Shown one piece after another: positions 1-9,379 of a stretch of 9,379 nucleotides of DNA. This DNA is from a virus. Lineage: Duplodnaviria > Heunggongvirae > Uroviricota > Caudoviricetes. The stretch spans positions 1 through 9,379 of IMG/VR virus record IMGVR_UViG_2778261313_000003, one strand, 5' to 3'. The notes below the pieces were generated by a model, which saw only the letters and a program-made list of their open reading frames with translations, was not told where the DNA came from and did not search any database. A program made the position numbers and the translations under genes. Every line of letters begins with the position of its first letter. Within the stretch, counting starts at the first letter, position 1.

Positions 1-414
1 GATTACAGTATTTGGCATTGCAGCGGACGGCCAGAAGAACGGAACGCCAATAGCTGGAGCACCTTCTCCCAAACCAAGGTTTTCGAGAGCCGTTGGTACT
101 GTGCCGTCCGATTTGATATCACCAAACGGATTCTTGCGGCTCAGGTATTCAACAGCAAACCCCGATCCAAGCAATTCAACAAAACCGGGCAGATCACCAT
201 TATCAAGCACATCCCGTTGCGTTTTATCACTTACAAACTGGGCCAGAGCTGCAGCAATAAAGCTGGCCTGCCGAATAACCTTATTGACTTGCGCACTGGA
301 GGCTTTCCCTGCTGTAAATCCAGATAAAAGCGCGGGCAACGCTTCCCATTCCTCCTGCGATATAACATTGGCATTTCGATCCGTTGCAAACGCTTTAAAG
401 TCATTTTTCGCCAT
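1..414 (-). CDS. phage tail fiber protein, N-terminal 138 codons (gene continues beyond window start)
   Basis: Not in the ORF track because it has no stop in the window. Minus-strand ATG at 412..414 overlaps the stop of the upstream gene (ATGA), preceded by GGGGAG. The frame is open to position 1 ([61 protein letters not shown]...[16 protein letters not shown]). The fiber call rests on position directly after the J and I-position genes and a remembered resemblance to enterobacterial phage fiber N-termini. Confidence 0.5.
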
Positions 415-1094
415 CAGAGTAATACTCCCCATGCTCCTACATCAAAACCACTGATGAATTCGTTATCCATATCAAAACCAAAAAATTTTGAGCCTTCCGA
501 TGGGGTTTCCACCGAAGGTGTTTCAATGCCACCCGCCCATACCCCGGCGGCTTTTACTGTGAGATACCCCTGTTTAATTGCCGCAATTAACTCACGCGAT
601 ACATCTGAAATATCAGTATCAGGAAAGACCCAGACCGATATCGTCATGTCCTGGTTATCGACTATCTGCATTCGCAGTCCGGATCCTGCTGTCGCCGCGT
701 CAAGAATTGCCGGAAGCGAATCATTCCGTCCGTCCCAGTTATTAATCGCAATCTTCGCTTTAAGGATGACACGATAAGTTTCATCGCTGAGGTACATGTA
801 TCCGGAATCAGGATCGTATGGCCCCTGCCATACACCCTGATCATATCCAAGCCCGTCGGTATCCCAGCTGAAATAGACACCTGAGATAGGCTGGCTGACA
901 ACACGGCTACGTCCGACCCACAATCCAAGAATGTCAAGTTGCACACCAACCGCAGAGTCAATATCAAATGCAGTAATCAGCCCTCTGGTGGCAGCCGCAA
1001 CATCAATAAGCGGCCGGGTCATCAGATCAACATGTGCAAGAAATTTAGGTTTGGTGGCGTGGTAGTTCGTGATTAGTTCGGTGTATTTGCTCAT
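414..1094 (-). CDS. baseplate wedge / tail-fiber-attachment protein (P2 gpI / Mu gp48 position)
   Basis: 226-aa ORF whose ATG overlaps the stop of the J-like gene (ATGA) and whose stop overlaps the start of the fiber gene. Family call is from position between baseplate J and the fiber, not from a verified domain hit. Confidence 0.55.
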
Positions 1095-2290
1095 GACTCC
1101 ACCGTTATAACGATATTTCCCGGGGTACAGGACGCAGATTCGTTGTATCTGATATCAATGTTTGATGACGACAAAGCCCCCGGGGATTTCCCAATCGTCA
1201 GTTCCTGAATATCGTAATAGCGTGCATTCCCGCCACTCACCACGCCAAGATTCGCCGGTGAGTAAATGCGACTCAAAAGGACCGAATCACCAATCGTCAG
1301 ACTATTGATATAGTCTGAAATAGCCTGCTGGATCTGCTGCCCTATCTGTGAGGTATAACCCGTAAAAACTTTTAATTTAATCCGGGCATAAACAGGCACA
1401 TCACTGGAACGCGAGAATTTGATTACATGGGGATTGCCGTATTTATCCGGAACCGTAACGGATGTTGTACCGTGAGTGGCTGTCCCCTGGCCTTTATTCC
1501 CTCTGATAGCCTGAGCAATATCCGTCACATCACCGCCATCCACAATTACAGCAACAGAGTGTGGCGGTAACCCGTTACCGTCCTCCGAACCAGTATCGTT
1601 TTCATAGAGTTTGTGGCGGGTTACACCGGTAACATTAGAAACAGCACCATCCAGTGCTTCAAATGGGGTTATTGATGGCAACGCAACACTTTGCGACTGG
1701 CGGATACGTAACTCCGCATCAGTTTCTGCTGGAGTGCCTACAGTAGCTGCAGCAGGATTGGTTACCGAAACCCAGCCACGGGTTGGCGTATTAATTTCAG
1801 TGATAGTTCCAGCCAGCGCCGCCACTGCACCACTGACGGAACATTTTGCGGTCACCATCACTGTACCATCCACGCCGACCACCACTGAAGCAGGCAAACG
1901 CCATATCACATTATTACTGTCTTTCACGCTGCCATTAATGATGGTTGTTCCGGCAGTTCCTGTAAGAAGCAAATCAACCGTAGAATTCGTCGCGCCTTTA
2001 CGTGAAATACCATTTATTTTCACGTTACTGGTCAGTGCAGCCCCATAGCCGGTTGCCGGTGAAAAACAGTTGTAGACAGTTATCGCCATATTATTGGCAT
2101 CATGAATCGCCAGCGCCATCAGAGCCACCATCTGGCCGTCTTTGCTGTCCGGTTCGAGGTAGGCATCACTGCCATAAATCTGCTGAAAATAGCTAATCAG
2201 GGTGCTGAGTATCGTCTGATAATCAGGCGCACTGATCCCCTCCGCGGTTACCTTTGCAGATAAACCGAGAGAATCAAGGTTCAGAGCCAT
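1091..2290 (-). CDS. baseplate J-like protein (gp6/gpJ/Mu gp47 type)
   Basis: 399-aa ORF, translationally coupled on both sides by overlapping start/stop codons. Size, Gly/Thr/Ser-rich composition and position between the W-position and I-position genes match baseplate J proteins. Confidence 0.65.
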   Translation of the reverse strand: MALNLDSLGLSAKVTAEGISAPDYQTILSTLISYFQQIYGSDAYLEPDSKDGQMVALMALAIHDANNMAITVYNCFSPATGYGAALTSNVKINGISRKGATNSTVDLLLTGTAGTTIINGSVKDSNNVIWRLPASVVVGVDGTVMVTAKCSVSGAVAALAGTITEINTPTRGWVSVTNPAAATVGTPAETDAELRIRQSQSVALPSITPFEALDGAVSNVTGVTRHKLYENDTGSEDGNGLPPHSVAVIVDGGDVTDIAQAIRGNKGQGTATHGTTSVTVPDKYGNPHVIKFSRSSDVPVYARIKLKVFTGYTSQIGQQIQQAISDYINSLTIGDSVLLSRIYSPANLGVVSGGNARYYDIQELTIGKSPGALSSSNIDIRYNESASCTPGNIVITVES

Positions 2291-2643
2291 TACGCCTCCG
2301 ATGTAACAGTCGTTATTCCATAAAGAGTGTCGATTTCAGCGGAAAACATGACACGTCGGGTCGTGGTATCCACCGTCGTATTGAAAGAGAGGATTGATTT
2401 AACGCCCTGCGTTTCGAGGATGCGCTTACGGATCGCCAGGTTGTAGGTTTCCGGCTTCTGCTTACCGAGTACGGACTGGATCCACGGAGTCCCCTCGGTG
2501 GTGTCGAGAAACCATTGCCCATACCACAATTCGAATCGAGTTTTTACCGCCTGCGCCACGGCCTCCGGTGAGTTAATCAGCCAAGTGTCATCACCGCTGC
2601 CAAAGGTGTAATCGCCATCGGCGTCTTCACGTCTGTATCGCAT
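2290..2643 (-). CDS. small baseplate protein at the gpW/gp25 position (Mu gp46-like)
   Basis: 117-aa ORF whose ATG overlaps the stop of the V-like gene and whose stop overlaps the ATG of the J-like gene. Call is by synteny; no lysozyme-like motif was verified. Confidence 0.5.
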   Translation of the reverse strand: MRYRREDADGDYTFGSGDDTWLINSPEAVAQAVKTRFELWYGQWFLDTTEGTPWIQSVLGKQKPETYNLAIRKRILETQGVKSILSFNTTVDTTTRRVMFSAEIDTLYGITTVTSEA

Positions 2644-3395
2644 CAGTTTACTCCGTCGGTATTGCTTCCACCGCGCTGAACACCACCATGAGTGTGCGTA
2701 TCATCGATTGGCTTGCCGTTAGCCTTCACGCTACCCAAAAACTCAACAGCACCAGTGATTTTTGAAGCCACACCAGAAACAACAGACCCCACCATGCCTC
2801 CCATCCAGGTTAACAGGCCATGAATGGTTACTTTCTCAGAAAAATCAGCCAGAGGGGCAACCACATCAAGGCCCCCCGGAGCGACAATTTTAATTTTCCT
2901 GGTATCAGGATTAAGCTCAAAATAGGTGCTGCCGTCATCACTACGCAACTGTGTGGCACTGGTATTAATACCGCTAATCTTCCTTGCCTGCGACTGGGGA
3001 CCGACAATACAAAACGCATCCGATAAATCATGCATTCTGTCATCGACCGGCTCCTGTATCCCGCCACTCTGCCACCAGAAATCAATACAACGATCGGCAA
3101 AAATCACCAAACATTCATCACCGGCTTTAACTGGAAACGTTAGCGTACAGCCTCCGCCACGCGGGAATACCACTGGCACATCCACCAGCAATGGGTAATT
3201 TTTGGTAATGCGGTTGCCGTCGTTATCAATTTCAACGTAACGGATAGCAGGCTGTACAACCGCCGTCACCGCATCAGGAGCGAATGACTGAACAATGCCA
3301 GGCAAGGCGACACGGATCTGGTTCTTTGTTGTTTCCCGTTCAGATTTAAATGTTTCGGCAAGGTCGCCGCTGCGGGTCTGGTCAGATACTGCCAT
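2643..3395 (-). CDS. baseplate central spike / assembly protein V-like
   Basis: 250-aa ORF. The N-terminal half contains ...PLLVDVPVVFPRGGG...GDECLVIFADRCIDFWW...RMHDLSDAFCIVG, a pattern I recognise from spike N-terminal (gp138-N / Mu gp45-type) domains. RBS GGAG sits 8 nt upstream of the ATG at 3393..3395. Confidence 0.6.
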   Translation of the reverse strand: MAVSDQTRSGDLAETFKSERETTKNQIRVALPGIVQSFAPDAVTAVVQPAIRYVEIDNDGNRITKNYPLLVDVPVVFPRGGGCTLTFPVKAGDECLVIFADRCIDFWWQSGGIQEPVDDRMHDLSDAFCIVGPQSQARKISGINTSATQLRSDDGSTYFELNPDTRKIKIVAPGGLDVVAPLADFSEKVTIHGLLTWMGGMVGSVVSGVASKITGAVEFLGSVKANGKPIDDTHTHGGVQRGGSNTDGVN

Positions 3396-3411
3396 TTAGT
3401 AGGCTCCAGAA

Positions 3412-3440
3412 AGCAAAAAACCCTCCAAGTGGCGGGTTTG
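3412..3440 (-). terminator. putative rho-independent terminator downstream of the HEPN-like gene
   Basis: Minus-strand RNA would read CCCGCC-ACUU-GGAGGG (five G-C pairs with one internal G/A mismatch, extendable by flanking A-U pairs) followed by UUUUUU. It lies between the stop of the 142-aa gene (3460) and the RBS of the V-like gene (3404..3407). Confidence 0.45.
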
Positions 3441-3459
3441 AATTTTGAGAAATTTCAGC

Positions 3460-3888
3460 TTATGCAGTTAACGAGTCATCACCAATCTTCAGTAATTGAT
3501 TAACGATTGCATCGACCTCTTCCGCATCCAGAATTACACTTCTCGCGGTAATCCGGTTGATTTTCCGCTCAAGCTTGTAATCAGAATTAACACGTTGGGC
3601 ATGCGTCATTTTCAGTTTAACGCCGATTTTCTTTACTGCGTTAACATCAACATCGTTAAGTGCAGCTGCCTCACCACTACAAAAGGCCGTATAGACTCGC
3701 ATGTGAACTCCACCTTTTAGTTTTTCACCATCTTGTGTAGCGGTCGGTACCAGATTGTTGGTGATCCGTAAGACGGAATGGTACATACCATAGTATGCTC
3801 GGCTAATAGCATTTCTCGTCCACATCTCACCGTTTAGAGCCAGGGAATGCTTAGCCAATTCAAGAAAACAGGTATGCTCAACCGACAT
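3460..3888 (-). CDS. HEPN-like domain protein (UPF0332-type), candidate RNase toxin/effector
   Basis: 142-aa ORF with ordered motifs as in classical HEPN/UPF0332 proteins: SRAYYGMYH (res 29-37, Arg30-x6-His37), KGGVHMRVYTAF (58-69), QRVNSDY (98-104) and an acidic C-terminal helix DAEEVDAIVNQLL. The ATG shares one nucleotide with the stop of the upstream 243-aa gene (TAATG). Assignment is from motif recall, not an HMM score. Confidence 0.5.
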   Translation of the reverse strand: MSVEHTCFLELAKHSLALNGEMWTRNAISRAYYGMYHSVLRITNNLVPTATQDGEKLKGGVHMRVYTAFCSGEAAALNDVDVNAVKKIGVKLKMTHAQRVNSDYKLERKINRITARSVILDAEEVDAIVNQLLKIGDDSLTA

Positions 3889-4619
3889 TAGAGTTCCCCG
3901 GCTTCAAAGCATCCGACGCATTCTGAATCCGCAAGCCCCGCAATAATAATCTCATCAGCCAAGGCATTATTCATCTGCGAAAGAAGCACTGGATCGTCTG
4001 TTTTGACTTCAACGAACAGCGTATCAAGTTCTGACATTACATAAAAAGCATGAGCGCCAGCAAGACGAGCGCGGTACTTTTCTGCAACGTTCATCATGAG
4101 CCGCCCAATAGTTTTTAGCTCCTGAGCATGATCTTTTTGGGTATGCAGATAATTGAGCGTGTCATACCATTTGCCCATATCTTCAGGGCGCGGTACTTCC
4201 ATTGCAGTTAGCATCGGCATCACCTTTTCAAGCAAATCGATATCAACCCAGTATGCAGAAATTGTAGCAACCTCAGCCAATATCGTTGGATTAAGTGAAT
4301 CAGATGCTTTCTGAATCATCACATACTGGCGAGCATGCAAACCTAAGTTACGCAGCGCAATCGTATAGTTACAAAAAGAAACTGGATCGTTAGGCGCTAT
4401 TCTCAACCCCCGCTCACAGAGTGAACATCCTTCATCTATTTCACCAAGAACAAGCTTAGCTAAGCCTTCAATTGATAGCCCCTGATAACGTTCAGGTAGT
4501 TTCTTCGCTTCACGAATGATTCGATGGATTTCAAACTCACTCAGAAGGTTTTCACCCTTAGTTAATGAAGGAGTCAGAAGATCTAACAGTTCTCCTGATT
4601 TTGGCTGCGCTAAACTCAT
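3888..4619 (-). CDS. hypothetical protein, first gene of the two-gene cassette (possible antitoxin/sensor partner)
   Basis: 243-aa ORF, start ATG at 4617..4619 preceded by AGGA about 11 nt upstream. Predicted mostly helical with two CxxC motifs (C65-S-L-C68 and C234-V-G-C237). No Walker A and no nucleotidyltransferase G[SG]...DxD motif was seen. By eye the gene is roughly 40-45% GC against roughly 50-60% in flanking tail genes. Confidence 0.6.
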   Translation of the reverse strand: MSLAQPKSGELLDLLTPSLTKGENLLSEFEIHRIIREAKKLPERYQGLSIEGLAKLVLGEIDEGCSLCERGLRIAPNDPVSFCNYTIALRNLGLHARQYVMIQKASDSLNPTILAEVATISAYWVDIDLLEKVMPMLTAMEVPRPEDMGKWYDTLNYLHTQKDHAQELKTIGRLMMNVAEKYRARLAGAHAFYVMSELDTLFVEVKTDDPVLLSQMNNALADEIIIAGLADSECVGCFEAGEL

Positions 4620-4768
4620 GTTTTAGTTATTCCTGGCTTTAATGAAGTAGCATATCGATGGCAATCCACCATCAAAAAGTCAGTGCAGTGTAATCGCTCG
4701 TCTCAAAAAACAACAGTTTTTAGAGCACATTTTGTTGTTTTTCAGGCGTTACGAATTTCAGGTTACCT
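4620..4768 (-). promoter_or_regulatory. intergenic leader of the cassette with a weak sigma70-like promoter candidate
   Basis: 149-bp non-coding gap upstream of the 243-aa gene. On the minus strand the best candidate is TTGATG (plus 4670..4675) and TATGCT (plus 4649..4654) with a 15-nt spacer, which is suboptimal. No strong consensus promoter was found. Confidence 0.25.
4705..4742. repeat. AT-rich inverted repeat (10-11 bp arms, about 17-nt spacer)
   Basis: AAAAAACAACA at 4705..4715 is the exact reverse complement of TGTTGTTTTT(T) at 4733..4742. It lies in the gap between the secreted-protein gene and the cassette. Confidence 0.5.
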
Positions 4769-5110
4769 TCACCCAGCCACTTTTTTACAAGGGAAAGATC
4801 CGATGATTTTCGGCGCATCCATGCTGTTCTGCAGAAGCTGGACATTCAGGAATCGCGTTTCGGTACCAGGGCGACGAATGTATTCAAAGCCGTAGTTGTT
4901 ACCGTCTTTGGCAGGCATAAGCCCCATGTCTACTTTCAAACCATTGGTACCCAGTTCGGTGATTTTTTGAGAGGTAACTCTTTCACCGTTGATAGTCGAT
5001 AACTCGCCCTGGTTTGCAACCATAGTGTAGCCACCGCATTTAACCGTGAAGCCATCCGCCCACGCGCTGCACGCAGAAAAGACAGCTAACAGAAAAATAA
5101 TACCCCTCAT
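4769..5110 (-). CDS. small secreted protein or lipoprotein of unknown function
   Basis: 113-aa ORF with an N-terminal signal peptide (MRGIIFLLAVFSACSAWA; possible lipobox FSAC or signal peptidase I site AWA/DG) and two Cys in the mature part. RBS AGGGGA sits 6 nt upstream of the ATG, which lies 3 nt after the hub gene stop. Confidence 0.6.
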   Translation of the reverse strand: MRGIIFLLAVFSACSAWADGFTVKCGGYTMVANQGELSTINGERVTSQKITELGTNGLKVDMGLMPAKDGNNYGFEYIRRPGTETRFLNVQLLQNSMDAPKIIGSFPCKKVAG

Positions 5111-5113
5111 TGC

Positions 5114-6175
5114 TCATCCCCTTTGCAAAGCCGATCGCGTATACAGATCCGCCGCGCCACGCGCTTCGCACATCATATCCATGTACCACGCCTGGCCCCT
5201 TGTGTCGCCAGTGTACATAATCCCGCGCACAATATAAACGCCATCCGTTGCGATGCTGGCAGGCTGCGATGTGGTGCCGCTTAGCGTGATATTTCCATCC
5301 GTGTTCTGGTCGGTGATCTGACCACCAGCCATCGCAATATCGTTGTTCGACAAGGCGGTACGATACACGGAAGCCTGATCCAGCTGAATAAGTCCGTTAA
5401 CCCGGATGTTCGGATTAATAAGCGCGCGGACGTTTACGCCGTTACCGATAGTCTGCTGCGGCATGCCAATAAGCCCGGTAGCGCTGTTGAGCACAATCGC
5501 TTCATGAACATATTCGTTATTCGCCACCATCTGGCGCTGACCGTCCACGAATTGCCATGTTGCGCCACATTGCCCGGCTACGTTATCCATTAGATGCCGC
5601 GTCATGCCAAAGAGTACCCGCCCCCGGGGGAATACAGTAGCAGGCATTTCAGGCGTCAGGCCTTCGGTCGCGCCTTTGGCTTCGAAGTCTTTCATCAGCG
5701 CACGGTTTACATCAGCGACCGTGTAACCGGCAGCCAGCGTCTGTGAGGTTATACTGGTGGCAAAAGCCAGATCAGTATCTGCTGCCTGAATCAGGACGTA
5801 GGAATCAACCGGACTGTCTTTTCCTGTGACCGAGTAGCGAATTTCACCGCTGAAAATCAGTCCGTAGTTGCGGCCATCACTCTGACCCACGTCCGCCGCG
5901 TCAACTTCCCGCACGGTCCCGACGTCGCTTGCCGACACCTCCGGCGCGATACCGTCGTAACCGGCAATCAGACGCACTTTCGAAAACTCCTGCCCGGTGA
6001 TTCGGTTCACAGTATCTGCCGAGAGGTTATAAATTTTGATAGTCCCTACCCGGGACGCGCTGCTGATGTTGAACCAGTCGATCGTAAAGGTGACTTTAAA
6101 ATCACTTAGCTCAATTCCCTGACCGTTCCCGTCCACAAGCTGCAGCTCGAAATGTCTCATCCAGTTCTGTGACAT
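5114..6175 (-). CDS. putative baseplate hub protein (P2 gpD / Mu gp44 / XkdQ-like)
   Basis: 353-aa ORF with RBS GGAG 5 nt upstream of the ATG. Size, position after the tape measure and small tail genes, and a C-terminal ...DGVYIVRGIMYTGDTRGQAWY... segment resemble hub proteins of simple contractile tails. Identity is inferred. Confidence 0.45.
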   Translation of the reverse strand: MSQNWMRHFELQLVDGNGQGIELSDFKVTFTIDWFNISSASRVGTIKIYNLSADTVNRITGQEFSKVRLIAGYDGIAPEVSASDVGTVREVDAADVGQSDGRNYGLIFSGEIRYSVTGKDSPVDSYVLIQAADTDLAFATSITSQTLAAGYTVADVNRALMKDFEAKGATEGLTPEMPATVFPRGRVLFGMTRHLMDNVAGQCGATWQFVDGQRQMVANNEYVHEAIVLNSATGLIGMPQQTIGNGVNVRALINPNIRVNGLIQLDQASVYRTALSNNDIAMAGGQITDQNTDGNITLSGTTSQPASIATDGVYIVRGIMYTGDTRGQAWYMDMMCEARGAADLYTRSALQRG

Positions 6176-6177
6176 GC

Positions 6178-6480
6178 TTACTCCGTTGATACCAGTAAAT
6201 GGCTGCGACCGCCCAGGTCAGTTTTTGTGGGGTAATCCTGTGTGTTGTCATCACAGACCACCACCAGCTTAAAACCAAGCCCCATACAGGCGTACTGCGC
6301 CAGCAGGTCAGCACCAGTGACGAGAGGAATACCGGAGATTACCGGCTCCCCTCTGTCGTTCTGCAGGTCCATAATCCAGTACAGATCGCGCCATATGATG
6401 CTAATCCGCCAGGTGACACCACCCAGGACGATGCTGAACTGCTGGTTGTCCGCTGTCAGCGGAATTTCCTGAATTGTCAT
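6178..6480 (-). CDS. small phage tail/baseplate-associated protein (unassigned family)
   Basis: 100-aa ORF whose ATG at 6478..6480 overlaps the stop of the upstream 195-aa gene. Its stop lies 2 nt before the hub gene ATG. Confidence 0.5.
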   Translation of the reverse strand: MTIQEIPLTADNQQFSIVLGGVTWRISIIWRDLYWIMDLQNDRGEPVISGIPLVTGADLLAQYACMGLGFKLVVVCDDNTQDYPTKTDLGGRSHLLVSTE

Positions 6481-7067
6481 TAGCCGCCCCCCAGTAATGA
6501 CGCCACGTTACCCGTGATGCTTTTCAGCAGTGAAGTATCTGGAGGTTTTGTGGTTTTGTTGCCGCTGTTCTGTACCGCCGACGTGCTGGCCCCTTCCTTC
6601 ATGTTGGTTTTATCCGCGACGGTAATCTGCTGTGTCCGGGAGATAATGACCTCCCTCAGGGTGAGGACGGCGGACAGGACGTTTTCGGTTGTCTTGTCCG
6701 TCGTCACTTCCAGCGCCCGGATCAACATGTTGCTGTACAGCCGTTTACCGGTTACCACATCGAAGGGGATACGGCTTTCCTGCAGATCCAGTAGCTCCTG
6801 ATACGTCTGCTGAGGACTCAGGCCGAGCAGGCTGGTAGCCGTCAGGTTACTGGCAAAATCCAGCAATGCGCCGCCACCGGCGAAACCAACCTCCATCACC
6901 ACTTCTGACGGTTTTTTATAGGCATGATCAGCGACAGCGGCCCCGACCTCTACCGGATGCTCTGTTATTTCAAGCATATCTGTATGCTTCTCTGAAATAA
7001 CAACACTGGGAACAATCATTCCTATTTTTCTGCTCTGCTGATGAAAAAGTGTAGAGAGAATATCCAC
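6480..7067 (-). CDS. phage tail protein (unassigned family), probable GTG start
   Basis: 195-aa ORF. Codon 1 is GTG (plus 7065..7067), overlapping the tape measure TAG stop and preceded by GAGGGTGGGG. The first internal ATG (codon 17) has no good RBS. Confidence 0.5.
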   Translation of the reverse strand: MDILSTLFHQQSRKIGMIVPSVVISEKHTDMLEITEHPVEVGAAVADHAYKKPSEVVMEVGFAGGGALLDFASNLTATSLLGLSPQQTYQELLDLQESRIPFDVVTGKRLYSNMLIRALEVTTDKTTENVLSAVLTLREVIISRTQQITVADKTNMKEGASTSAVQNSGNKTTKPPDTSLLKSITGNVASLLGGG

Positions 7068-9052
7068 TACCCCACCCTCACCTGATTACTTCGCATGACC
7101 TGAGCATTTGCAGACTGTTGCCGACGTGCAACCTCATTACCGACAGCGTGCGGATCTCCGCCACCGTAAATATGGTAGGTATTTTGCTGGTTAACCTCTG
7201 TCACTTTGCCACTAATTCCCGCCACGGCAGCCTTATTAATCAGCTCTCGAGAATAGATATTTCTTCCATTCTCATGCTGGATAATGCTGCTCATCAATGC
7301 TGACATGGTTTGCGGATCGCTCATATTCAGGGCAGCCCGGGGATCCACTCCCAGTCGTTGCGATACAGCCCTGATATACGCGGTTGTGTTGTTATTATCA
7401 GACGCAGGTGCCCAGGTAGAGATAATTTTCTCCACACTGTTTATTCCCCGTCCGGCGTACAGCATTAACTGACGAGCAAGAGCCCGTAATCCATCAAAAG
7501 CGGTTTCAAATCTGGCAAATCGCCCGCCCGGTCGTTCAAGAGAAGCCCCCGCCTGACCAGCAAAATTAAGGTTTCCCGGATTGTTATTCCGTTCTCCTCG
7601 CTTCGTAGCCTGTGCATGTTGTTCCGGCTCAGCACCTGGAATATCTGACTGAATATTTGCGCCTTTTACGGTATGAGGATTACGACCAAAATCGGTATCA
7701 ATGCCAAGCCAGCGCAATGAATCTCCAATATTTTGTTTCGTGTAATCCCAGGATGACTTCGCACTGGCACCAATATTTTCGCGATCGGAGTACAAATAAG
7801 CAGCATAAGCCATCCAGCCTTTTAACCATGGCGGTACCGGCAAACCAGATATTTTCCCGAAAGCCCCCAGAACCCTGGATACCCAAACACCCGCGATGAA
7901 TGTACCGAGGATTTCCAGTGCATTTTGCCAGCCGCCAACACCATCTTTTAGTTCCAGAAGGTGATCACGAAGCCAGGTGATCGCATCCTTCGCTTTATCT
8001 ATTGCCGGTTGCCATTTTTCCCAGTCGATAAGACTGTTACCGCCTTCTTTCCATGTTTTGTAGTCTTCCCACAAGAGACCGAGAGCCACGATCAGACCGG
8101 TAATCAGCCCTATAGGTGACATCCAGAAAGTAGAGTTAAGTATCCGCATGGCGACAACCAGACCGCCGATAACCTCTATCAGGGTTTTCGTTTCGGCATC
8201 CAGTTTCCCCCACCACTCGATGATATCTCCGACACCATCGACTATCCGAAATGCTACCCGCCCGACTATCTCACCCAGCCAGAGGATCCCCTTTATGACC
8301 TTTGTGATGGTGACTTCAATTTTGGGAAAATTTTCAATTATCTTTTTGCGCAGGTTATCAATCTGCCCCGCCAGTCCGTCCGCAAGATTCGATCCGATTT
8401 TGTCCCGCGCCATCCCGGCCATTTCACCGAGCGATTTCAGCGAGGTCATAAACCGGTTTGACGATAAGGCAGCCTGATCGGCATTAAATCCGATCGCTTT
8501 CACCATTTCTGAATACTGAGCGCTGAACTGCCCCACTCCGCGACGCATAGCCATCAGGGTATTTTCGTCAATGCCCAGCATCTGCGCATACTGGTTAGCC
8601 CGGTAATACGGCATGCTGCTGAGTTTCTGTCCAACGCCCGTAAAGATAGCAGCCATGTCACGCATGTTACCGCGGGCATCACGGGTCTGTACGCCCAGGC
8701 GATTCAGAAAGCCTTCTGCTCCGGGATTGTTACGAATAAACCGGGAGAGGCTTTCCAGAGAAGATCGCGCAGCGTCCACACTGCCGCCAACCTGCGAAAC
8801 CGCATAGCCAATAGACTGAATTCCCTGGACCGTCGCGCCGGTGCGCTGTGACGCCCAGTAAAGATTATCCAGGCCGGAGGCGATCTTAGCCGTGAAGGCC
8901 ACCACGGACAGCGCAGCTCCTTCAACAGCCAGCCCCATTTTGATGACATTTGCAGTTGTACCGGCGAGGACAGAACCGAACTTTTTCGCTCCTGCATCAT
9001 CCACACTGAAGCCAAGCGAGACGAGGAAATCTTTAATAGTTTCAGCGTTCAT
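7067..9052 (-). CDS. phage tail tape measure protein
   Basis: Long ORF (661 aa from the ATG at 9050..9052, which has GGAG 8 nt upstream; the track's TTG start at 9073 adds 7 codons). Helical, Ala/Gly-rich N-terminal half, a central hydrophobic stretch (LIEVIGGLVVAMRILNSTFWMSPIGLITGLIVALGLLW) and a C-terminal segment containing NNPGNL ... WAP ... HENG. It sits at the head of the baseplate gene block. Confidence 0.75.
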   Translation of the reverse strand: MNAETIKDFLVSLGFSVDDAGAKKFGSVLAGTTANVIKMGLAVEGAALSVVAFTAKIASGLDNLYWASQRTGATVQGIQSIGYAVSQVGGSVDAARSSLESLSRFIRNNPGAEGFLNRLGVQTRDARGNMRDMAAIFTGVGQKLSSMPYYRANQYAQMLGIDENTLMAMRRGVGQFSAQYSEMVKAIGFNADQAALSSNRFMTSLKSLGEMAGMARDKIGSNLADGLAGQIDNLRKKIIENFPKIEVTITKVIKGILWLGEIVGRVAFRIVDGVGDIIEWWGKLDAETKTLIEVIGGLVVAMRILNSTFWMSPIGLITGLIVALGLLWEDYKTWKEGGNSLIDWEKWQPAIDKAKDAITWLRDHLLELKDGVGGWQNALEILGTFIAGVWVSRVLGAFGKISGLPVPPWLKGWMAYAAYLYSDRENIGASAKSSWDYTKQNIGDSLRWLGIDTDFGRNPHTVKGANIQSDIPGAEPEQHAQATKRGERNNNPGNLNFAGQAGASLERPGGRFARFETAFDGLRALARQLMLYAGRGINSVEKIISTWAPASDNNNTTAYIRAVSQRLGVDPRAALNMSDPQTMSALMSSIIQHENGRNIYSRELINKAAVAGISGKVTEVNQQNTYHIYGGGDPHAVGNEVARRQQSANAQVMRSNQVRVG

Positions 9053-9142
9053 TATCCTCTCTCCATTTCTCAATGCGCCGCTGGTTATCCGCTTTTACCG
9101 CCAGATGGTCATTCAAGAGAGCAATGTCATACAAATCGACAG
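9042..9142 (-). pseudogene. 3' remnant of the gene upstream of the tape measure gene, severed by the IS insertion (possibly tail assembly chaperone)
   Basis: Only one minus-strand frame is open from the IS boundary (9142) to a TGA at 9042..9044 (VDLYDIALLNDHLAVKADNQRRIEKWREDNER*), ending 11 nt inside the tape measure gene. The other two frames stop within 5 to 10 codons. The frame has no start codon in the window. Confidence 0.3.
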
Positions 9143-9379
9143 TGTAGATTCAATCTGTCAATGCAACACCCCTTTCAATTATCTCTTTCGGTGTTTTGAA
9201 CTTCAGTGTCTTTCTCGGTCTGTTGTTTAGCTGAGCAGCAACCAGATCTAGTTCATGTTGAGTATATTGGGCAAGACATGTCTTTTTAGGAAAGTACTGC
9301 CGAATTAGCCCATTTGTGTTCTCATTTGTTCCCCGCTGCCAAGGACTCTGAGGATCGCAGAAGTAAACTTTAACGCCGG
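9143..9379 (-). mobile_element. IS30-family insertion sequence, right end (element continues beyond window)
   Basis: The terminal sequence TGTAGATTCAATCTGTCAATGCAAC begins at 9143. The adjacent minus-strand frame encodes a transposase C-terminus carrying the IS30-family signature around the catalytic Glu (PWQRGTNENTNGLIRQYFPK). Confidence 0.8.
9150..9379 (-). CDS. IS30-family transposase, C-terminal 75 codons (5' part outside window)
   Basis: Minus-strand translation ...VKVYFCDPQSPWQRGTNENTNGLIRQYFPKKTCLAQYTQHELDLVAAQLNNRPRKTLKFKTPKEIIERGVALTD*, with the stop at 9150..9152 inside the terminal inverted repeat. Confidence 0.8.
   Translation of the reverse strand, partial: GVKVYFCDPQSPWQRGTNENTNGLIRQYFPKKTCLAQYTQHELDLVAAQLNNRPRKTLKFKTPKEIIERGVALTD

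Follow-up and report, generated by a model that had tools for sequence, protein, structure and literature searches.

What was interrupted when an IS30 element inserted just upstream of a prophage tape-measure gene, and what would the loss mean for assembly of the phage tail? This question is raised by one end of a 9,379-nt stretch of DNA (hereafter the window), which is the whole of source contig NMGD01000089.1 (assembly GCA_002538765.1), a draft contig that terminates within the IS30 copy. The prophage to which the window belongs is a temperate, myophage-type prophage of E. coli (SEN34/vB_EcoM-683R1 group), and the window covers its tail and baseplate end. Every tail gene of the window is carried by the minus strand, and these genes are given here together with the features of the junction:

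414..1094, minus strand: wedge gene
1091..2290, minus strand: Baseplate_J gene
2290..2643, minus strand: sheath-initiator-like gene
2643..3395, minus strand: spike gene
3460..3888 and 3888..4619, minus strand: cargo genes
4769..5110, minus strand: 113-aa gene
5114..6175, minus strand: hub-like gene
6178..6480, minus strand: Pam3_gp18 plug gene
6480..7067, minus strand: Dit-like gene
7067..9052, minus strand: intact tape-measure gene of 661 aa, including a transglycosylase region (from its translation and the annotation of homologues)
9056..9064, minus strand: ribosome-binding site of the tape measure, GGAGAGAGG (from the sequence; invariant in the alignment of relatives)
9042..9140, minus strand: remnant of the extension (DUF6889, T-like domain), 32 codons plus TGA (from the Pfam match, frame and selection)
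9141..9142, minus strand: CT, right-hand copy of the 2-bp IS30 target-site duplication (from comparison of empty and filled sites)
9168..9143, minus strand: right inverted repeat of IS30, 26 bp, TGTTGCATTGACAGATTGAATCTACA (from the sequence)
9377..9150, minus strand: C-terminus of the IS30 transposase, 75 codons plus stop, ending in KTPKEIIERGVALTD (from its translation)
9143..9379, minus strand: last 237 bp of IS30 (from sequence and translation; the contig stops within the element)

The tape-measure gene begins with the ATG at 9052..9050, equals its annotated homologues in length and start, and encodes a protein of which the exact sequence is recorded in 425 collection blocks. The baseplate genes (414..7067) belong to the same operon as the tape measure and all of them now lie downstream of IS30. 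In intact copies of the prophage the gene order is sheath (DUF3383), tube (DUF3277/PhiTE), Phage_TAC_15 chaperone, DUF6889 and tape measure, and the site is empty in the L019 prophage, which shows a single mismatch to the window in 9142 nt (99.99% identity). The explanation that best accounts for the locus overall, to which we assign a probability of about 85%, is that IS30 at a hot spot truncates a long chaperone isoform predicted to be made by frameshifting. The event is ordinary prophage decay, which is largely known, and it involves no new kind of system.

The IS30 junction and the interrupted frame

The IS30 part of the window aligns to positions 985-1221 of the element, which is 1221 bp long in CAU16175, L024 and EPSSH018; it is 100% identical to the CAU16175 copy and 97-99% identical to thousands of other IS30 copies. 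The left repeat and the full 383-aa transposase (DDE; HTH_38 plus rve) are present in L003 and L024. In the window, the transposase reading frame ends within the right repeat, and since this repeat occupies 9168..9143 the flank begins at 9142. Empty sites read GGCT-CT-GTCG with a single CT (L019, L001 and others; assembly GCA_044942845.1 is an example of an empty-site genome), while filled sites read ...GGCTCT-IS30-CTGTCG... (CAU16175, EPSSH018), with CT on both sides of the 1221-bp element. The 2-bp target duplication that the earlier note had proposed to look for is thus CT, of which the window shows the right copy only, and a duplication of this size is characteristic of IS30 (PMC9333248). 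Because the window ends inside IS30, a simple insertion in its own genome is inferred from other assemblies, and for such an insertion the left junction would read ...GGCTCT/TGTAGATTC..., with the chaperone-side flank ending in ...AAAGATGGCTCT. Three assemblies span the element (the complete genomes CAU16175 and EPSSH018 and the draft contig L024), and in these the order is intact chaperone, 5' part of the extension and 1221-bp IS30. A matching upstream part in the same frame, which was expected on the far side of the element, is therefore present in all three. The in-frame arrangement of transposase stop and remnant (TGA plus three codons) was considered as potentially meaningful and rejected, the elements of EPSSH018 and L027 being reversed.

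On the tape-measure side of the element, the remnant frame runs from GTC at 9140 to TGA at 9044..9042 and encodes VDLYDIALLNDHLAVKADNQRRIEKWREDNER. Its stop falls 11 nt within the tape-measure gene (overlap sequence ATGAACGCTGA), and the GGAGAGAGG ribosome-binding site sits within the remnant, unharmed by the insertion. The other two minus-strand frames across the region are interrupted by stops. The initial description of a single open frame over 99 nt between the IS end and the tape measure thus stands for the minus strand, as does the 11-nt overlap, but the gap itself measures 90 nt (9142..9053), 99 nt being what the remnant ORF measures together with its stop, and the plus strand has an open frame as well (8892..9230), the antisense shadow that a coding frame usually casts. 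The remnant matches the Pfam family DUF6889 (PF21829) at model positions 11-40 of 40 with 54.4 bits (E 1e-14; curated gathering threshold, 23.9 bits), and the intact extension scores 73-74 bits. The uninterrupted sequence is found in 310 of 5426 complete E. coli genomes, and 27 of the 34 differences in the remnant frame fall at the third codon position. The region is thus coding in intact relatives and under purifying selection in the remnant frame. Together, the DUF6889 homology and the relatives with an empty site uphold the proposal that an IS30-family insertion cut through a coding frame, the 3' tail of which runs into the start of the tape measure.

The chaperone and its predicted -1 frameshift extension

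In the spanning assemblies, the chaperone ORF (150 aa, Pfam Phage_TAC_15) is intact and ends 89 nt upstream of the insertion. The suggestion that the severed gene is the tail assembly chaperone consequently needs to be narrowed, as it is the -1 extension of the chaperone that is cut, whereas the main 150-aa ORF remains intact upstream. Comparison of the sequences indicates that DUF6889 is the -1 frameshift extension of the Phage_TAC_15 chaperone and not a separate gene, with the frameshifting itself being a prediction. The DUF6889 frame is -1 relative to the chaperone, and a slippery run (GGGAAATTTTTTG) is found in phase in the enterobacterial and Elizabethkingia relatives. Located near chaperone codon 135, this run is read as G_GGA_AAT_TTT_TTG and includes the heptamer T_TTT_TTG. 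An in-phase slippery heptamer occurs at the equivalent position in 14 of the 15 phages and prophages compared, from 12 genera (CCCTTTT, TTTTTTT, GGGTTTT/TTTTTTC or GGGAAAT in other relatives), and a canonical heptamer is missing only in Edwardsiella phage ZHS. In 13 of the 15, the -1 frame continues without a stop from the slip site to near the tape-measure start, ending 3 nt before this start in ZHS and 4-11 nt inside the gene in the other twelve; in Acinetobacter phage AbTJ, the -1 frame extends 59 nt beyond the annotated tape-measure start. In each of the 40 phage hits obtained with tblastn, homology in the 0 frame ends at residue 134-135 of the 150-aa chaperone, and DUF6889 is matched by 13 of 13 extensions in alignments that begin well upstream of any start codon. 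Past the chaperone stop, the ratio of synonymous to non-synonymous differences is 24:5 in the -1 frame and 2:28 and 3:28 in the others, and the slip site is where amino-acid conservation passes from the 0 to the -1 frame.

In the mechanism that we propose, a small share of ribosomes would slip by -1 near codon 135 and read the 77-residue DUF6889 extension, producing a minor long chaperone isoform of ~213 aa. This extension may recruit the tube protein as the T domain of lambda does. When the 92 nt that follow the slip site were folded, no stimulatory RNA structure emerged (z = 0.29). Neither the chaperone nor an extension profile found any real relatives when searched against PDB sequences, and our literature search found no paper naming DUF6889 nor any on this phage group.

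Other accounts of what lies upstream of the tape measure have to be weighed against a truncated frameshift product. Openness of a frame is by itself a common occurrence, as any single frame stays open with P ~0.22 and one or more of the three with P ~0.52; a 32-codon open frame is expected on one strand in about half of random 99-nt stretches. The remnant is judged real because of its homology and not because of openness alone, and the Pfam match, the third-position bias and conservation over 12 host genera refute a chance frame in a non-coding spacer, the probability of which is practically nil. DUF6889 could instead be an independent small gene with its own start codon, in which case the IS30 insertion would be unrelated to the chaperone. 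In fact, the extension is annotated in RefSeq as a 54-aa 'DUF6889 family protein' by the NCBI pipeline PGAP, a separate small DUF6889 ORF is annotated in phages yong1, ZHS, PSTCR3 and BgManors32, and the function of the family is listed as unknown in Pfam and PHROGs. Such a CDS would, however, require a CTG start in E. coli. No ATG, GTG or TTG precedes the conserved domain (the LPxG...PV... part) in 9 of the 13 extensions, and the first start codon appears at extension residue 48-54 of 77 in E. coli, SEN34, YP3 and AbTJ. Moreover, the DUF6889 frame invariably lies -1 relative to the chaperone and the in-phase heptamer is placed where the 0-frame homology stops, and an independent gene is therefore very improbable. 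Finally, IS30 could have mediated a larger rearrangement in the genome of the window (a deletion, inversion or replicon fusion), so that the chaperone, tube, sheath and head genes would no longer be adjacent. IS30 junctions are known to produce deletions and inversions (PMC9333248), and the contig stops inside the element. All three spanning assemblies nevertheless carry a simple 1221-bp insertion that has the chaperone directly upstream, and both complete genomes have the CT duplication. In addition, short-read contigs usually break inside multicopy IS elements, and across 819 nt at the junction the window is 100% identical to CAU16175. All this makes a rearrangement distinctly unlikely.

The insertion site and its probable consequence for tail assembly

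The insertion target is the near-palindromic TTAAAGATGGCT-CT-GTCGATTTGTAT (as a single sequence, TTAAAGATGGCTCTGTCGATTTGTAT), which codes for the conserved ...LKDGSVDLY... motif in the extension. Six assemblies that differ in their prophage cargo variants have IS30 at the identical dinucleotide and in the same orientation; L027 and the complete genome EPSSH018, the latter with a different transposase allele, have it there in the opposite orientation. Since insertions of both orientations in different genomes fall on this one dinucleotide, the site is regarded as an IS30 hot spot, and IS30 is known to favour near-palindromic hot spots (PMC9333248). Eight other IS30 sites were chosen via right-flank similarity and an empirical pattern was built from them; the left flanks alone therefore provide an unbiased test, and these agree with the present site at 53 of 96 positions (P 3e-10). 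That this is a natural IS30 hot spot is thus well supported, and to our knowledge it is undescribed.

The 1221-bp IS30 inserted at this hot spot, duplicated CT and spared the short chaperone ORF. The extension retains 45 of its 77 residues and loses the last 32, which are the best conserved, and the predicted long isoform, now truncated, would acquire ~21 IS-encoded residues. Of the 12 columns of the extension that are invariant or nearly so, 5 lie in the 32 lost residues, as do 30 of the 40 positions of the Pfam model. In addition, 1.2 kb of IS now separates the promoter side of the late operon from the tape-measure and baseplate genes. Polarity of IS30 on the tape-measure gene and an outward hybrid promoter are candidate effects: a simple scan of IS30 and both junctions detected no promoter or terminator on either strand, and inspection by eye found no suitably spaced -10 in the flank for the TTGACA of the right repeat. 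According to PMC5009743 and PMC4493119, gpGT of lambda and gpT of TP901-1 are needed for tail assembly and no tails are made once the T part is removed. By analogy with these proteins, the prophage is likely to be defective in tail assembly.

Alternatively, the insertion could be silent or tolerated if the short chaperone and the truncated isoform suffice and the tape measure is transcribed by read-through starting in IS30 or at the late promoter, so that tails are still made. The chaperone ORF, the tape-measure ribosome-binding site and all downstream genes of the window are intact, the transposase is co-oriented with the tail genes, the simple scan revealed no terminator-like site in IS30, and the truncated isoform may keep residual function. 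We nonetheless consider tolerance unlikely in view of the conserved positions that are lost, the effect of removing the T part in lambda and TP901-1, and the further tape-measure lesions (an IS3-family insertion and an internal stop) gained by both insertion-bearing complete genomes. A likely tail-assembly defect remains our preferred reading, and since the tape-measure and baseplate genes of the window are still intact, the insertion is possibly recent. A far more speculative extension of it is that a standing hot spot repeatedly disarms a widespread E. coli prophage family at a single precise position, hits being perhaps favoured because tailed particles are stopped and the remainder of the prophage, cargo included, is kept. 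Selection of such hits, as opposed to mere tolerance, is a conjecture that we hold to be very doubtful; if true, it would represent a recurrent, sequence-programmed path to prophage domestication.

The practical value of these findings lies mainly in annotation, and knowledge of tail assembly and of transposition is unchanged by them. 'DUF6889 family protein' and PHROG 4364 entries appear to be the -1 tails of Phage_TAC_15 chaperones, for which a joined CDS is advised, and the 30-aa RefSeq 'DUF6889 family protein' beside IS30 is a gene fragment. Prophages of this family with IS30 at this position can be scored as probably tail-defective in intactness prediction. The recurrent use of one dinucleotide in both orientations also offers a natural chromosomal example of IS30 hot-spot targeting.

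Comparison with known systems

Primary work on frameshifting in lambda and P2 is reportedly that of Levin in 1993, of Xu, Hendrix and Duda in 2004, 2013 and 2014, and of Christie in 2002, as cited in PMC5009743 and PMC3091744. The chaperones gpG/gpGT of lambda and gpE/gpE+E' of P2 are produced by programmed -1 frameshifting, which in P2 takes place at TTTTTTG without downstream structure (PMC3091744). Like lambda G/GT and P2 E/E+E', the genes studied here are flanked by the tube (major tail) gene and the tape measure and have one start, from which a short 0-frame product and a -1 extended product are predicted. As in both phages, there is an in-phase heptamer near the 3' end (GGGAAAT resembles GGGAAAG of lambda, and TTTTTTG is that of P2), downstream RNA structure is absent, and the extension terminates at the tape-measure start or inside it. 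Neither lambda G/T nor P2 E/E' shows detectable similarity in sequence, the families here being Phage_TAC_15 and DUF6889. Unlike the single heptamer of lambda and P2, three overlapping in-phase heptamers are present, and in this group both the frameshift and the function of the extension are predictions.

The closest counterparts are homologous. Klebsiella phage Mulock (MN098327) and Burkholderia phage Magia (NC_070954) encode a homologous chaperone (58% and 26% identity, respectively) and a homologous DUF6889 extension, the two already joined in their records as a 'tape measure chaperone frameshift product' CDS, whereas RefSeq, Pfam and PHROGs keep the extension apart, listed as a protein without assigned function. 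Mulock and Magia are intact phages, in contrast to the window, in which the extension is cut by IS30.

Natural hot spots of IS30 such as LHS are said to have been studied by Olasz and co-workers. Like LHS in phage lambda, as described in PMC9333248, the present site is a near-palindrome that is reused in either orientation and of which the central 2 bp are duplicated. Unlike LHS, it is located inside a conserved phage coding motif, LKDGSVDLY.

The interrupted frame next to the tape-measure gene

All long open reading frames (ORFs) of the window are on the minus strand and constitute the distal half of a contractile-tail module, which is bordered by the end of an IS30 element.

Features of the window
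9143 to window end, minus, last 237 bp of IS30
9377..9150, minus, C-terminus of the IS30 transposase
9168..9143, minus, 26-bp right inverted repeat of IS30
7067..9052, minus, tape-measure protein
6480..7067, minus, Dit-like baseplate protein
6178..6480, minus, Pam3_gp18-type plug
5114..6175, minus, hub-like protein
3888..4619, minus, ORF of 243 aa (lower-GC stretch)
3460..3888, minus, ORF of 142 aa (lower-GC stretch)
2643..3395, minus, spike
1091..2290, minus, Baseplate_J
414..1094, minus, wedge

The window is the reverse complement of a whole 9379-bp draft contig (NMGD01000089.1, assembly GCA_002538765.1) and its sequence therefore stops inside IS30; short-read contigs commonly break within IS elements. 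Between the IS30 end and the tape-measure ATG at 9052, which is preceded by the ribosome-binding site GGAGAGAGG, there are 90 nt; the 99 nt given for this gap by the earlier note is in fact the length of the remnant ORF. This remnant is a minus-strand frame of 32 codons that runs from 9140 to a TGA at 9044..9042, 11 nt within the tape-measure gene, and encodes VDLYDIALLNDHLAVKADNQRRIEKWREDNER*. By chance, an open frame of this size would turn up on a given strand in about one of every two random 99-nt sequences, and the evidence that this one is real is therefore its homology. Against Pfam DUF6889, the 32 residues score 54 bits (cut-off 24) over model positions 11-40 of 40, and this match, together with the translation, bears out the frame described in the earlier note. 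The claim that no other frame is open here is correct for the minus strand, on which both remaining frames are closed, but the plus strand also carries one, a 112-aa ORF with a GTG start (8892..9230) that runs opposite the tape-measure start, the remnant and the end of IS30. This ORF crosses the IS30 junction, which rules it out as an ancestral gene; it shadows the coding frames on the antisense strand. The remnant also shares its reading frame with the transposase stop (TGA, 9152..9150), the stop and three codons lying between, which is judged a coincidence given that IS30 also occurs here in the opposite orientation.

Within the baseplate operon, with the hub-side genes on one side and the spike on the other, two genes occupy a lower-GC stretch (3460-4700; GC 41-46% versus 50-56% around). 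They match PHROG 22649 and PHROG 5176, both function-unknown, have no Pfam match and give only a faint HEPN_IX match in PADLOC (E 0.004). In other prophage variants the same slot contains a 121-aa ORF, ORFs of 176 and 57 aa, or one of 241 aa, and these differing contents suggest a slot for variable cargo. At position 1, its left end, the window cuts a tail-fibre gene, beyond which near-identical prophages (L019 18639-21456, L021 and L023) contain Caudo_TAP tail-fibre assembly genes in both orientations, a Gp53-like_C fragment and a resolvase/HTH_7 invertase. This region, which lies outside the window, is an inversion segment for tail fibres, of the Mu G/P1 C type, and may be the 'cassette' named by the earlier note.

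DUF6889 as a predicted frameshift extension of the chaperone

Of 5426 complete E. coli genomes, 310 contain the stretch 8400..9142 without a break. Intact copies have, in this order, sheath (DUF3383), tube (DUF3277), a 150-aa tail assembly chaperone (Pfam Phage_TAC_15, E 7e-31), a 54-aa coding sequence (CDS) named 'DUF6889 family protein' and tape measure. DUF6889 lies in the -1 frame with respect to the chaperone, and at chaperone codons 133-136 the sequence GGGAAATTTTTTG provides three overlapping in-phase slippery heptamers (G_GGA_AAT, A_AAT_TTT and T_TTT_TTG), from which the -1 frame is open to a stop inside the tape-measure gene. In a comparison set of 15 phages and prophages (from Escherichia, Salmonella, Yersinia, Klebsiella, Hafnia, Elizabethkingia, Bordetella, Edwardsiella, Providencia, Burkholderia, Acinetobacter and Ralstonia), an in-phase heptamer occurs at the equivalent place in 14, and in 13 the -1 frame remains open from the slip site until close to the tape-measure start, ending 3 nt before it in the Edwardsiella phage ZHS and 4-11 nt inside in the other twelve. 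The extensions of 13 relatives align as one conserved domain (...LPDGEDWLLRPV..G.C.YE.LKDG..DL.DIALMND.L.V.ADN...), all match DUF6889, and nine have no ATG, GTG or TTG ahead of it; the first start codon of the E. coli extension is at residue 48 of 77. In all 40 phage matches, tblastn similarity to the chaperone ends at residue 134-135 of 150, i.e., at the slip site. Between E. coli and the related phage SEN34, codon changes 3' of the chaperone stop are 24 synonymous and 5 non-synonymous in the -1 frame, compared with 2:28 and 3:28 in the other frames, and the comparison with uninterrupted homologues proposed in the earlier note thus shows the region to be coding. Together, these sequence features argue that DUF6889 is the frameshift extension of the chaperone and not a separate gene, with a predicted long isoform of ~213 aa. 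In fact, the records of the phages Mulock (Klebsiella) and Magia (Burkholderia) already join the product as 'tape measure chaperone frameshift product'.

RefSeq/PGAP calls the extension as a free-standing 54-aa CDS with an assumed CTG start (L001; L002, E. coli IAI1, NC_011741, 3937-4101) and, beside IS30, as a 30-aa 'DUF6889 family protein' that starts at a TTG (L003, CAU16175, 12246-12338). Both calls would be artefacts of leaving the predicted programmed frameshift unmodelled. In IAI1, the extension lacks 1 nt (GGG to GG; ~3930-3937, column 96 of alignment A1), so that the -1 frame stops after 34 residues and the 'DUF6889' CDS as annotated is not in register with the slip site; the deletion reflects either a separate loss of the long isoform or an error of sequencing.

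A recurrent IS30 target

A draft genome (L019, GCA_044942845.1) that differs from window positions 1..9142 by a single base in 9142 has the empty site, which reads ...AAAGATGGCT-CT-GTCGATTTG... Among complete genomes, the window-type junction occurs only in E. coli CAU16175, where a 1221-bp IS30 is flanked by duplicated CT, the intact chaperone ORF ends 89 nt upstream of the element and the 5' part of the DUF6889 frame runs into its left end. In this genome, the far side of the element holds the missing part of the cut frame and the target duplication, as anticipated in the earlier note.

As a called gene, the 30-aa remnant ORF occurs in 28 blocks of the assembly collection. IS30 is found at the identical dinucleotide in the window orientation in six assemblies, which differ in downstream cargo genes and IS30 allele, and, inserted the other way round, in a draft genome (L027) and the complete genome EPSSH018, the latter again with a CT duplication and with a different transposase allele. 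Both orientations and the differing alleles and cargo therefore indicate at least two independent insertions, and probably more. IS30 prefers near-palindromic hot spots and inserts at their central 2 bp (PMC9333248). Eight other E. coli IS30 sites show a near-palindromic pattern around the duplicated pair, and their left flanks, which lie outside the query that selected them, match the window site at 53 of 96 positions (P 3e-10). The hot spot corresponds to the codons of the conserved LKDGSVDLY motif. In another genome (L026, GCA_002109605.1, ADIK01000035.1, 4506-5979), a different mobile element, with IS66-family transposase fragments and an 8-bp duplication (CTTAAAGA), is inserted in the same extension, 6 nt upstream of the IS30 site.

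Expected effect of the insertion and known systems

The extension has 77 codons, and IS30 follows codon 45. The predicted long isoform would retain ...ALKDGS, lose VDLYDIALLNDHLAVKADNQRRIEKWREDNER and continue with ~21 IS-encoded residues to a stop. Of the 40 Pfam model positions, 30 fall in the lost part, as do 5 of the 12 columns that are invariant or nearly so. The short chaperone ORF is intact where assemblies span the element, and in the window the insertion leaves the tape-measure ribosome-binding site and all genes downstream of it undamaged. Lambda gpGT binds the major tail protein through its T part and the tape measure through its G part, with a critical ratio of G to GT (PMC5009743), while blocking gpT production in TP901-1 yields capsids only (PMC4493119). 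By analogy, a prophage with the insertion should fail at tail assembly. A polar effect of the 1.2-kb element on the tape-measure and baseplate genes is also plausible; a simple scan of IS30 and its surroundings found no terminator and no promoter. In the two complete genomes in which IS30 occupies this site, the tape-measure gene is damaged further, which fits a prophage no longer under selection: CAU16175 contains IS3-family elements in this gene and in the wedge gene (DUF2612) (12820-14128 and 21722-23030) and EPSSH018 an internal stop at tape-measure codon 435. The window copy has none of these extra lesions.

The earlier interpretation, a severed gene upstream of the tape measure that is usually the tail assembly chaperone, is right in outline, since the cut part belongs to the chaperone, but the main 150-aa ORF is probably spared and only the predicted frameshift extension cut. 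P2 E/E+E' also uses T_TTT_TTG without downstream structure (PMC3091744); here, too, no RNA structure is predicted downstream of the slip site. Chaperone and DUF6889 would represent the G/GT arrangement conserved in long-tailed phages (PMC5009743). G/GT-type frameshifting is a known kind of mechanism, IS30 hot-spot insertion leading to prophage decay is a known kind of event, and related phages have already been annotated with the frameshift. To these, the present case makes two modest additions: DUF6889 (PHROG 4364) can be assigned a putative role, and a site in the extension is a recurrent IS30 target.
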